Origin: a virus
Reading direction: 5' to 3' (one strand)
DNA: 64,000 nt
IMG/VR virus record: IMGVR_UViG_3300047089_000244
Location: 1 to 64,000 of that record
A program made the position numbers and the translations under genes. Positions 13,878-18,547 of this stretch are shown here, one piece after another; position 1 is the stretch's first letter; the number at the start of each line of letters is the position of its first letter. The notes beneath the pieces were generated by a model, which did not search any database, was not told the origin of the DNA, and saw only the letters and a list, made by a program, of their open reading frames with translations.

Positions 13878-16256
13878 TTAGTAAGTAAACCAAACCGATT
13901 CTTCACCGTAGACGACACCATCGTTTTCAACGGGGAAAGTTTCAACGTTGAAATCACTACGTTCGGTATTTATGTCATCGGTACCGGCCTCAACGTAGAT
14001 GTTTGTATCAGCAGTCACCGAGAACTGACTGCGCAGAAAGGCTAGTTCTTTGAGCCCTGCAAAATATGCACGGTCATTTTCAAAGAGCGCATTAAGTTCC
14101 TTATATTCGTGACGACAAGTGACCCAGAAATACAGGACGGGAATTGATTCGTCTAGGACGACAGCTTGGCGATCTAGACCTGAGACTGCGATAGTCGTGT
14201 TATTCCGAAATTGAGGTTCACCCTCGACCGGGTAGCTAGGTGCATTGTTGGCGTTTGTAGCTGCGCGTGCTCCAAGAAGAGTGAGCGGATTAGCCCGCGC
14301 TGCCGGTGGCTTGAGATATGTGTTGAGTGTTGTTTCGATGCGTCGTAGTGTTTCTGGATCAACGCGATTTGATGCCGGTGGTGCGATAGATGGCGTCGGT
14401 GTTGGATGTTCAGGGGAGGACGGTCCCTGAATCAGGTCTTCTAGCAATGGCTTGTAGCCTAGTTCGAGCGCATCGTATACAACACCGACACGCTTAGAGG
14501 TGAAGGCGGGAAGCGAAAGTTCTGCGAGGAATGGTGTCGCCACCCAATCGGGGAAGAGTTTATAACCCGTGGGCTTTTGGTAATCACCTGGTTCGTATGG
14601 ACGTGCCTGAAGGTGGCTAAACTCAATCTTGATGAACTTGGCTGTGATTGGTTCTGGTAATACATAAGTCGTCTTGACAGAAGTCACGAAAGACTGCGGG
14701 ATATGAACCCAGAGCTTCTGTTCCCACTCTTCTTCTGTCATTTCGCCACCTTCTGGTGTTCCAGTGAGATCATTGGTGTAGTAGATGTTGAATGCCACGC
14801 CTGGTGTAATCGGGTCGAGCACAACGCTATCGATGACCACCGGATCGACAGAGAGTTTAGGTTCAGTCAATTCGATTGATCCAGAACGACCCCTCTGGTT
14901 TTCCCACTTAGCGCTTGGGCTATCGCCATCGATGTAAGGGGCGGCTTTTGTTCCTGCGTTCGCCATGACGGCATCAATATAGAAAGTACGCGCTACCGTC
15001 TCGCTCGCAAGGGTACGTACTGACATGGTTGTGAGGCCGCTCGCGATAGGAGTCAGCGTGACTGAAAATCTTTGCCATTCGGAGCTTACGGTTATGACTT
15101 CTTCGGCTTTACCAACTGTCGCATCCCCGATTTCAAGTACCAGGGAGAATTTGCCGACTTTGCTACGGACCCAGGTTGAGACTGTAATCGGTTTAGCAAG
15201 TCCCACCGAGACCTGAGAGTATGCTCCTTCTGGTTCATGAAATCGTCCGGCAACGTGAGCTACAGTAGCCACTTCAAGTGAGTTGAGACCGCGCACAGCT
15301 TCGATTAAATTGACAACCCGTAACGTTGCTTGCGTTTCCCAGGTATCGAAGAAGAGTGTGGCCGCAAGCTTCTGTCGAGCTTCGAATCCAGCTTCGCCTT
15401 CTTTGCCTTTGATTACTTCTTTGGCCGGTCGGGCAGGGATCGTATCATCTTCCCTGAAATCAGGAGTGGGCTGCCAATTGAATGCTCCTTTGCCTACTAC
15501 GTCGTACTCGAAGCTCGGATCAAGCATCGTGTTAATGACCCCATAGATTGGAGTCGATGGAAAGACCCGTAGATCAGAGTAGTGGCTAGTAACTGCAAAC
15601 TTGGACGGCTGCGGGGCTGAAAGCCAGAATCCTGAATTGGTGTTCTCGCCTACCGGAGCCTGCGCGCTAGAGTGGATTGCCACAGAACGATAGGGATCTC
15701 CCAGGAAGTCTGTACCGGCGTCTGCTGACAATCCAAGGAGTCGGAAGGCAAACGACGCTGGTGGCGCGAGAAGGGCTTTACCGTTGCTCTGAAGGGCTTC
15801 TACAAACCCCGGCAGAGGGTTAGGCTGCGCATAGTAGACTTTTTCGATCCCCGATACGATCTGGAACCCGATGCGTAGCTCAGAGACGTTGGTGGTCATG
15901 CTTACATCGACTGGGATTTCTCGGTCTAGGATGACATCGATCCAGATTCGTTCTCCTTCAGCTTGTGCACCTGTTACTGTACCTTTGGCAAGGACCTCCC
16001 AAGCGGTATTACCAAAATTGTGTTGTTCGATCGTGTAGTTCAACGTAGCCGTGGATGCGGCTTCTTTAGCAATTGCAGCAAGAAGCTGAAAACCGGAAAT
16101 GCCAGGGAAACGAGTCTGTCCCGATTTAACACCACGTAAATAGTCTTCCGGTAGGCGGAACTCCTGGTAGTAGAAGCTATTGCCGGGTGTAATCGACGCC
16201 GTTACGACGTTTTGATCGATCACAACTCCGCTATATTCGGCGCATACGTTGCTCAT
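13878..16256 (-). CDS. baseplate/tail protein with CBM4/9-like domain
   Basis: N...DPSFE...WQRFSVT...FYIDAV..PYIDG; ATG 16256 (GTG 16259 alternative). Confidence 0.75.
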   Translation of the reverse strand: MSNVCAEYSGVVIDQNVVTASITPGNSFYYQEFRLPEDYLRGVKSGQTRFPGISGFQLLAAIAKEAASTATLNYTIEQHNFGNTAWEVLAKGTVTGAQAEGERIWIDVILDREIPVDVSMTTNVSELRIGFQIVSGIEKVYYAQPNPLPGFVEALQSNGKALLAPPASFAFRLLGLSADAGTDFLGDPYRSVAIHSSAQAPVGENTNSGFWLSAPQPSKFAVTSHYSDLRVFPSTPIYGVINTMLDPSFEYDVVGKGAFNWQPTPDFREDDTIPARPAKEVIKGKEGEAGFEARQKLAATLFFDTWETQATLRVVNLIEAVRGLNSLEVATVAHVAGRFHEPEGAYSQVSVGLAKPITVSTWVRSKVGKFSLVLEIGDATVGKAEEVITVSSEWQRFSVTLTPIASGLTTMSVRTLASETVARTFYIDAVMANAGTKAAPYIDGDSPSAKWENQRGRSGSIELTEPKLSVDPVVIDSVVLDPITPGVAFNIYYTNDLTGTPEGGEMTEEEWEQKLWVHIPQSFVTSVKTTYVLPEPITAKFIKIEFSHLQARPYEPGDYQKPTGYKLFPDWVATPFLAELSLPAFTSKRVGVVYDALELGYKPLLEDLIQGPSSPEHPTPTPSIAPPASNRVDPETLRRIETTLNTYLKPPAARANPLTLLGARAATNANNAPSYPVEGEPQFRNNTTIAVSGLDRQAVVLDESIPVLYFWVTCRHEYKELNALFENDRAYFAGLKELAFLRSQFSVTADTNIYVEAGTDDINTERSDFNVETFPVENDGVVYGEESVWFTY

Positions 16257-16304
16257 CACCGATTATGGTCCCGAAGTCCTCTGTCGTGTGTTATAATGCA
16301 GAGC

Positions 16305-16580
16305 ATGGAGACAATTGATAAAGCCAAAGAGCAACTTGCAGCACAAGTGAAGGTGCTCAAACTAGAGCCCGGTGACATTCTTGTGGCAAAACTAGGAATT
16401 GCCAATATGGGCGAGGGCCTACCCCCGTGGATTCCGATGCTTGCCGAGCTTGAGTCCGTGCGTGATGATCTGTTATTGGTTGTTCCTAAGGATGTGCGAG
16501 TGCTTATTCACCACATGGGTCTTGAATTTGAAACCATACGTAACCTCTCTGAGGCAGATCGCGTTCTCGTAGAATCTTAA
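16305..16580 (+). CDS. 91-aa protein resembling an internal portal-protein segment
   Basis: Leaderless after TGtTATAAT (16289-16297); sequence ILVAKLG...GEGLPPWIP...ELE..RDDL...D.RVLIHH.GLE. Confidence 0.7.
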   Translation: METIDKAKEQLAAQVKVLKLEPGDILVAKLGIANMGEGLPPWIPMLAELESVRDDLLLVVPKDVRVLIHHMGLEFETIRNLSEADRVLVES

Positions 16581-16585
16581 GTGAT

Positions 16586-18547
16586 TCAAGGGGCAACGTT
16601 ACGTCCGATACGCAGATTGCGTACCTCGGCGCTGTACGGGAATGGCAGACCTTCCGTAGGACGGGTGAACTCAAAGCGAATGAACCGCGTGTAGATCATG
16701 GCGCTCAAGGATGTGCTGATGTTCATCGTGATAAGCGACCACTGATTGATGTTCTTGGCTTCATAAGATGTGCTTTGAGTAGACGGTGCTTCACGTTCAT
16801 TGACTAGAGTCACAGGAATAAACCTACGTGCTGGCGCTGCATCGAGCAAGTCATAGCTCACTGAGATTTTGAATGGCTTCTGTGATGATTCAAACGAGAT
16901 GAAATTGACCGCTTGCACGGTACCGAGATCGATCTCTAAGAAGTCTGATCCCGCAAGTCGCTCTAGGGATGACCAAAAGGGTGCGGTTTCAGATGGCGCT
17001 CCTTGGATCTGAGCGAGATTCTGATAGATAGCAGGGTAGATGGAGTTGACGAGGGGTTCTGGGCCTACTTTAGTTGTCAGTGGTTCCGGAGGATTGACAG
17101 CGGCATCGATGGCTTTGAATTCCTCTCTCGGGCTCTGGAAAGTAGCGAGGAATGGATACTGCGCTTGCTGCGCAGCCGAGTAAATACCAATATGTTCATC
17201 TTTGTAGTTGTCTAGTTCTTCTAGATGTTCATTGCCTACCTCGGTGTAAGCCACTGCCGCAGCGACATTATGGAAGTTGACGTAATTAGCATGTTGTCCG
17301 TTGATCGCTACAGGAGCCTCATTCTCTATGCCTGGTTCGATCCAGGTGGTTGAACTTACAGGAGGCCACGGCAGACCCCTCTTACCTGTCACGTAGCGTA
17401 GAACTTCAATGAATTCTGAATCAGCAAAGGAGGCGTTAGGGATCTGACGCTTAGTTAGACCAGGAGCTTTGCCCGGTGTGAGGATACAAGTAACAGGCTT
17501 GATATTGTCAATAGCGACCTGGGCAAAATACCAATCTTCCGTTGGGATCACGGCTTCCTCGCCGTCTGCGGAGACTCCTACTTGATCGACAGCTACTTCG
17601 ATCTCAATTAGATGCCCTTCGTTATCGGCGAGAGAGTTTTGTGTGATTAGGAACTGTGGCATTGGCTTATCAGCCAGTTCATTGGTGAAACTAATAACAA
17701 GGGGGTTGCCAGGGAAAGGGCCACCTGTGACAGATACGTTTCGATTACCAATAACTGGAAGAGCTTCCAGCGCGAGTGTGAGTTCTTCGAAGTCAACGTT
17801 AAAGGGTAGTGCATACGTCGTACTGGTGTTCTGAATTTCTTCGCCTTTTCGACCTGGACCTAAAGGCATAGTGAGCTTGAACGTGCCCGTGATAGCATTG
17901 CCTTCCTCGATCGAGATCGTTTGCTGTGCGCTTTGTGGATGTTCCTGGCGTGGTAAGAGGATGATCTCTTCCGTTGATTTAGTCAGGCCGATCGGTTCGA
18001 TGCCGAGAGGGTCGTCAGAGAAACCGTCATATAGGCTATGATAGTTCTCTACGATTTCGACTGCACGATTAAGAGCCGACTTGGCTGCCAGAGTAATACC
18101 AAGTAATGTGCCACCAGCACGCACAGCCTTGAGGTAGTTAATCGCTCGGTTCTTGTAGGACGAATCCGATTCCTGGATTTTCTCCCACTGTTCATTGCTT
18201 AAGAGCCCTTCAGTGTCGTCGGTGTATGTCTCAAATGCTAGGCGGGCGAAGGAGAATGGTTCTGCGTAGAAGGCGTCTAGTTCGGTAGTGCGCAGGCCAT
18301 TGGCTTCGATGTTTAAGCGAGCTTCGAGGAAGTTCTGCTTGAGGGTCCCCACGCCAGCCGGACCCAGTAGCGTGTACATGAGCGCAACCAGATTCGAGTC
18401 GAGCGACTTGTTGTACAGCGTTTCAGGGAAAGCATCGAGATAACTGATAGGGTGTTTCGGGCCTCCTAATGGCTCGATGAAGACCTGCTGGTTGATGACA
18501 GTCGTGATGTCCGGTGTTTCGACCGTTGTGCCAAGAGGTTCAGACAT
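16586..18547 (-). CDS. baseplate wedge protein
   Basis: Follows baseplate J; D.SY..R...YL.A...GGT..G motif; IKP motif; C-terminal discoidin-like domain. Confidence 0.7.
   Translation of the reverse strand: MSEPLGTTVETPDITTVINQQVFIEPLGGPKHPISYLDAFPETLYNKSLDSNLVALMYTLLGPAGVGTLKQNFLEARLNIEANGLRTTELDAFYAEPFSFARLAFETYTDDTEGLLSNEQWEKIQESDSSYKNRAINYLKAVRAGGTLLGITLAAKSALNRAVEIVENYHSLYDGFSDDPLGIEPIGLTKSTEEIILLPRQEHPQSAQQTISIEEGNAITGTFKLTMPLGPGRKGEEIQNTSTTYALPFNVDFEELTLALEALPVIGNRNVSVTGGPFPGNPLVISFTNELADKPMPQFLITQNSLADNEGHLIEIEVAVDQVGVSADGEEAVIPTEDWYFAQVAIDNIKPVTCILTPGKAPGLTKRQIPNASFADSEFIEVLRYVTGKRGLPWPPVSSTTWIEPGIENEAPVAINGQHANYVNFHNVAAAVAYTEVGNEHLEELDNYKDEHIGIYSAAQQAQYPFLATFQSPREEFKAIDAAVNPPEPLTTKVGPEPLVNSIYPAIYQNLAQIQGAPSETAPFWSSLERLAGSDFLEIDLGTVQAVNFISFESSQKPFKISVSYDLLDAAPARRFIPVTLVNEREAPSTQSTSYEAKNINQWSLITMNISTSLSAMIYTRFIRFEFTRPTEGLPFPYSAEVRNLRIGRNVAP

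Follow-up and report, generated by a model that had tools for sequence, protein, structure and literature searches.

Few phage proteins are sensed as widely as portals, which are read by Avs4, Avs11, SpbK and RAZR, and because the portal is essential, escape from such sensors by mutation is costly. Within the portal, the clip domain consists of three strands and one helix that join two stem helices, and its binders include terminase, neck proteins and host sensors (PMC12847820). The Bacillus subtilis sensor SpbK binds the clip helix of the phage portal YonE, and clustering on the dodecameric ring is what activates it (PMC11984713, PMC12847820). Portal mutants that escape SpbK are rare, at about 1e-10, and related phages instead answer with an accessory inhibitor gene, nip (PMC11984713). 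The STAND NTPases Avs4 and Avs11 are likewise triggered by portals, and the clip forms part of the surface that Avs4 contacts (PMC12847820; 10.64898/2026.01.04.697583; 10.1101/2025.11.14.688446). Since an Avs4 is known from Streptomyces, actinobacterial hosts can have one. Outside bacteria, the truncated Phytophthora protein XLP1 is a paralogous decoy that shields XEG1, so that a shortened paralogue of the pathogen's own recognised protein absorbs the host binder; at best guess, the gene described here would work in a similar way, but the XLP1 system is eukaryotic and involves an enzyme-inhibitor pair. Our literature searches for truncated, free-standing clip or decoy portals in phages found nothing relevant.

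The gene lies in a window comprising bases 1-64000 of a 169,966-base virus record that has a terminal repeat. As a sequence-only reading of this DNA had claimed, it is a 91-aa antisense gene between genes of the tail and baseplate module: it occupies the gap between two minus-strand tail genes and is oriented opposite to both (Table 1), with a Baseplate_J gene 2.2 kb beyond the DUF7297 gene and a further baseplate gene further up. The peptide quoted in that reading corresponds to residues 25-76 of the translated ORF. Read on the minus strand, the same interval is interrupted by stop codons, and longer starts at 16212 (TTG) and 16296 (an ATG within the -10 box) were rejected because orthologues begin at the ATG equivalent to 16305. 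The flanking minor tail protein contains a domain of 110-130 aa that also occurs, at 35-37% identity, in the product of a distant gene of the same genome (75469-77742).

Table 1. Features of the clip gene, its protein and their genomic context. Positions are those of the window except for the portal gene, which is given in genome positions.
Feature	Position	Strand	Basis or remark
Free-standing portal-clip gene, 91 aa	16305..16580	+	ATG 16305 to TAA 16580; 91 codons
Predicted extended -10 promoter box, TGnTATAAT, leaderless type	16289..16297	+	7 nt before ATG; enriched class
N-terminal helix, residues 1-13	16305..16343	+	AlphaFold model
Family-specific, non-portal segment, residues 14-24, ending L-x-P-G-D	16344..16376	+	Replaces end of stem helix
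Clip strand 1, residues 25-30 (portal 343-348)	16377..16394	+	Alignment and model
Clip loop (G-D/E-G ... P-W-I-P) and first half of clip helix, residues 31-56 (portal 349-374)	16395..16472	+	Part matched to own portal
Likely gene-conversion tract from the portal gene	16407..16478	+	65/73 nt identical
End of clip helix and clip strands 2 and 3, residues 57-78 (portal 375-396)	16473..16538	+	Alignment and model
Clade-specific C-terminal tail, residues 79-91, not portal-derived	16539..16577	+	Alignment
Minor tail protein, flanking (context)	13878..16259	-	phrog_2840, E 3.7e-9
DUF7297 virion structural protein, flanking (context)	16586..18547	-	PF23970, E 4.7e-18; phrog_2813, E 5.1e-18
The phage's own portal gene	genome 132816-135401	-	861 aa

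The sole family matched by the ORF is the portal PHROG phrog_2833 (E 3.3e-11, profile positions 330-384 of 874), that of the Bxz1-like portals of Ceeclamvirinae, Puppervirus and Stormageddonvirus, whereas Pfam and NCBIfam hold no family for the ORF or its relatives. The phage's own portal gene lies outside the window, as had been supposed, and tblastn aligns the ORF with it without gaps (E 4e-20; residues 24-74 to portal 342-392, 31/51 identical). Identity rises to 25/33 over residues 24-56, and the homologous stretch as a whole spans residues 24-78, equivalent to portal 342-396. The ORF also matches portals in 223 records of cultured phages of Mycobacterium, Gordonia and Rhodococcus. These matches bear out the portal-segment likeness that the sequence-only reading had put forward, and the alignment with the phage's own portal, the comparison on which that reading staked its case, is significant.

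To place the matched segment within the portal, we used an AlphaFold model covering portal residues 95-605, which superposes on solved portals with Z up to 19.3 (rmsd 4.5, 288 aligned); a PDB sequence search with the portal gave no match. In this model, a 27-residue helix (314-340) precedes the matched segment and a second helix (405-419) follows it, such that the segment is predicted to sit between two stem helices. The model of the 91-aa protein (pLDDT 88.7) has a strand at residues 25-30, a long loop, a helix at 46-59 and strands at 65-69 and 73-78, with the helix and the second and third strands in register with those of the portal model. Because the segment lies between stem helices and is built from three strands and one helix, it fits the published definition of the clip (PMC12847820), and on these models ORF residues 24-78 correspond to the portal clip domain, the layout that had been proposed for them. 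A fold search with the small model returned a best PDB Z of 4.2 and listed no portal, several portals appeared among the weak rows of a BFVD search (E 0.4-1.8), and the ESM Atlas gave unnamed clusters only (score 0.80, TM up to 0.59). The absence of a direct match to a solved clip is unsurprising given a domain of only 55 residues and speaks neither for nor against the assignment. Prediction of a four-copy complex scored 0.09, and we draw no evidence from it.

The 91-aa protein is not a portal, since the complete wing-stem-clip-crown architecture is absent and only portal 342-396 is matched. What it shares with phrog_2833 portals, by clear homology, is the strand-loop-helix-strand-strand order of their clip together with the loop motif; unlike them, it is without wing, crown and paired stem helices, is encoded by a separate, accessory and fast-evolving gene with its own promoter, begins with a new N-terminal segment and has residues that are invariant in the ring-forming proteins replaced. 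Its N-terminal helix is perhaps a remnant of the portal stem helix, with 4/23 identities in register. The segment that follows ends in L-x-P-G-D, which is absent from portals and of which G23 and D24 are found in 95% and 85% of 60 family members, respectively. Within residues 57-78, the portal-invariant D375, A377 and F382 are replaced and H388 and G390 are kept.

The 60 members come from a search of 1.84 billion representatives, which gave 91 matches, about 60 of them short, free-standing proteins (clusters at 50% identity), so that the standalone homologues that the earlier reading had proposed looking for do exist. Phrog_2833 is matched by 46 of the 60. Conservation across the family is strongest at the portal-loop positions (G31, G36, P41, W42, P44, E48 and L49), together with H70-x-G72. 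By contrast, portal-invariant D375, A377 and H387 are mostly replaced, and where portals have an invariant S-D-F-R, the family has a P-E-G-V-K turn that occurs in no portal. In a quick tree, all 60 free-standing members fall on one side of a single well-supported branch, with branches much longer than those of portal clips; the tree is consistent with a single old origin, but it was built on 67 columns and several origins are possible. Taken together, these comparisons delineate an unnamed clip-only gene family that evolves many times faster than the portal clip. The L-x-P-G-D and P-E-G-V-K scaffold common to the family and unlike all portals, as well as the placement of 60/60 members beyond one branch, would also fit a domesticated fragment that does not act by mimicking the portal: an old duplication would have supplied a stable small fold that now serves another purpose, and recombination where the two genes are most alike would have produced the match to the resident portal incidentally. 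We consider this explanation unlikely, as it sits poorly with the finding that the best-conserved family residues (G31, G36, P41, W42, P44, E48, L49 and H70) are those of the portal loop.

Full-length homologues of the present gene were found at 62-81% identity. Most of them occupy the equivalent position, flanked by the same pair of tail genes, encoded opposite to them and preceded by a similar promoter box. Start and length are conserved among these orthologues, and dN/dS against syntenic orthologues is 0.08-0.25, with silent sites far diverged and the protein kept, which indicates at the level of sequence that the clip copy is a real gene under selection. A frameshifted copy in one relative might suggest that the gene is non-functional duplication debris. 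However, low dN/dS with large silent divergence largely refutes this idea, and the conserved start, length and promoter box, the family of about 60 clusters and the confidently predicted fold leave it highly improbable.

The gene is sparsely distributed. Among 13 related virus records with a completeness of 79% or more, we found it in the present genome and in G010 and did not find it in the other 11. A family-profile search of four cultured phages (Myrna, Pupper, Stormageddon and Tonenili) showed it to be absent from them, and each of the 223 cultured records gave one match, which in every listed record was the portal gene, although the first pass of that search was loose and very divergent copies may be missed. 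Scans with degenerate DNA patterns yielded mostly chance matches, and zero loci in GTDB genomes passed the family profile. Six phages encode it on the portal's own strand, 2-7 genes past the portal; its other sites are after recA, within runs of small genes and in the tail module. Thus, the clip gene is accessory, patchy, mobile and under selection. These locations bear on the possibility that the protein modulates the phage's own head assembly, with a free clip competing for or chaperoning the large terminase or a neck adaptor and thereby tuning the timing of packaging or neck addition. Terminase and the tail machinery dock on the clip (PMC12847820), the six copies just 3' of the portal share its strand, and the present copy stands among tail genes. 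Against such a role, most relatives with the same head module do without the gene, which moves to non-structural regions and changes many times more quickly than portal clips do, whereas assembly factors tend to be conserved and to keep their position. We regard this explanation as somewhat unlikely.

Several other small or altered genes with portal-derived sequence were observed in relatives. Immediately 5' of an intact portal, an 88-codon frame (L024:3755-4018, +) is a diverged copy of part of the portal wing (portal profile, E 2.3e-7), in a phage (G002) without the clip gene, and a small ORF 2 kb 3' of another portal (L048:4559-4873, +) is a copy of the C-terminal crown helix pair (E 2.3e-6). 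Fusions of the clip with a crown piece (about portal 566-598) occur at L266:109-501, at L268:10001-10447 and in protein P0037, the crown piece following the clip in one and preceding it in two. A 66-aa gene near a portal and two genes before a clip gene (L057:9428-9628, +) contains 33 nt of the clip loop of that phage's portal, 28 of them identical. Elsewhere, a clip gene is frameshifted in a run of A (L093:3382-3587; also L165 and L166), which may reflect a pseudogene, an assembly error or a programmed shift, and a stop apparently divides one portal gene (L346:5845-7800), leaving 102 aa at the N-terminal side and 549 aa beyond it. In relatives, further unrelated small plus-strand genes follow or accompany the clip gene (L034:859-1173 and L031:740-904); such extra genes at the tail-module site suggest that the site takes up accessory genes.

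The present copy is preceded by TGTTATAAT at 16289-16297, a predicted extended -10 box 7 nt 5' of its ATG. Across the whole genome, TGnTATA[AC]T followed by 5-8 nt and ATG occurs 21 times against 0.4 expected under a Markov model, an enrichment from which we conclude that this leaderless promoter class is real. The 21 genes so preceded make up a large set with leaderless, host-sigma-type promoters, many of them ahead of small isolated genes. A box of similar type is kept in syntenic orthologues (L027, L029, L031 and L034). The claim that the gene has its own leaderless promoter therefore appears sound from these patterns. Its description as an early promoter is not supported: a box of the same class (141087) precedes the gene that adjoins the putative large terminase (genome 138483-140615) on its upstream side, TGTTATAGT (135461) is located some 60 nt ahead of the portal start, and many copies of the clip gene lie a short way past the portal gene.

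We asked how closely the free-standing protein resembles the portal of the phage that carries it, using seven phages with both genes on one contig and scoring each free-standing protein against each portal clip. The seven pairs are related rather than independent lineages, and over them own pairs outscore chance pairings at both the protein (permutation p=0.0008) and the DNA level (p=0.001). In a ranking of 108 distinct clips, the own clip stood below a single other clip for three of the phages, below four and seven others for two more, and below 19 and 25 for the remaining two. The signal is confined to portal 349-374, comprising the loop and the first half of the helix (p=0.001; p=0.007 without this genome), and is absent from the remainder of the clip (p=0.74 over the seven pairs). 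We regard this tracking of the resident portal in a 26-residue patch as a new observation that the sequence comparisons support moderately.

Silent codons offer one explanation for the patch. In codons 35-56, 13 of 18 silent codons are common to the gene and its own portal compared to 2 of 11 outside (Fisher p=0.008), where codon usage predicts 5.9 of 18 and distant portals share about 45% with each other (binomial p=0.018); this level of sharing is about equal to that between close portals. The pattern in codons 35-56 probably records gene conversion by the portal gene; parallel selection or repeated origin may also contribute to the own-portal match. When set against orthologous copies alone, the contrast between core and flank was not significant (p 0.09-0.58). 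The match to the own portal is weak in some copies (L045 and L268), as would be expected of a domesticated fragment, and the presence of a piece of portal DNA in the unrelated-looking 66-aa L057 gene indicates that copying occurs readily, which again favours that explanation. Tracking of the own portal is also how a partner-specific surface of an assembly modulator should behave. It speaks, on the other hand, against a weapon that poisons the terminase docking or portal assembly of co-infecting related phages: a patchy, mobile gene with its own promoter and the close similarity of relatives' portal clips would suit such a weapon, but one matched better to its own portal than to others would poison its bearer, and no immunity partner is seen adjoining the clip gene, making this role very improbable.

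Our preferred, if tentative, reading by analogy with SpbK is that the clip copy is a decoy for a host sensor that docks on the clip, a proven sensor target in the case of SpbK and YonE. Patchiness, mobility and fast evolution, together with the wing and crown minigenes, favour host conflict over a fixed assembly role, and minigenes for wing and crown are what would be expected if several portal surfaces were watched. Under this model, the clip copy would remain outside the portal ring, the invariant residues specific to the ring having been replaced, and the free clip would be a soluble single unit that displays the outer surface of the clip and competes with the portal clip for a binder. That binder would most plausibly be an immune sensor that, like SpbK, fires only when clustered on the 12-membered ring, and the copy would keep it unclustered and inactive during production of the real portal. 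The match of the loop and helix start to the resident portal may be maintained at least partly by gene conversion, and the move of this clade into the tail module, on the opposite strand and behind its own host-type promoter, would have uncoupled the copy from the portal operon.

Some of the same evidence weighs against a decoy: the own-portal match would be no less expected of a protein that partners the phage's own terminase or neck adaptor, gene conversion can result passively from homology, and of the clip helix the match takes in the first half only. A mimic might also set off a sensor rather than block it. As to which sensor a decoy would absorb, the sequence-only reading had named Avs4; Avs4 is described as also contacting the stem and wing (PMC12847820), and since the clip alone is present here, Avs4 is a weaker candidate than that reading had assumed. 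More generally, a clip-only protein would be a poor bait for Avs-type sensors because they read folds over broad surfaces.

Extended to the wider group, the decoy reading would have Bxz1-like phages carry a family of self-mimics, mostly of the clip and sometimes of the wing or crown, that are updated by gene conversion and soak up portal sensors from which the phages cannot escape through portal mutation, a broader proposal that we hold to be doubtful. If the decoy reading is true, it would represent a counter-defence principle built from the phage's own trigger, of which we found no description for phages in the literature, and the 91-aa protein would be a ready bait for fishing portal sensors from actinobacterial hosts. 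If instead the partner is terminase or an adaptor, the protein would be a natural minimal packaging inhibitor that marks the docking loop of a portal family without a solved structure. Either way, the gene family in these phages is unnamed and bears an evolutionary signature open to testing, that of a paralogue kept matched to its parent in a single 26-residue patch.
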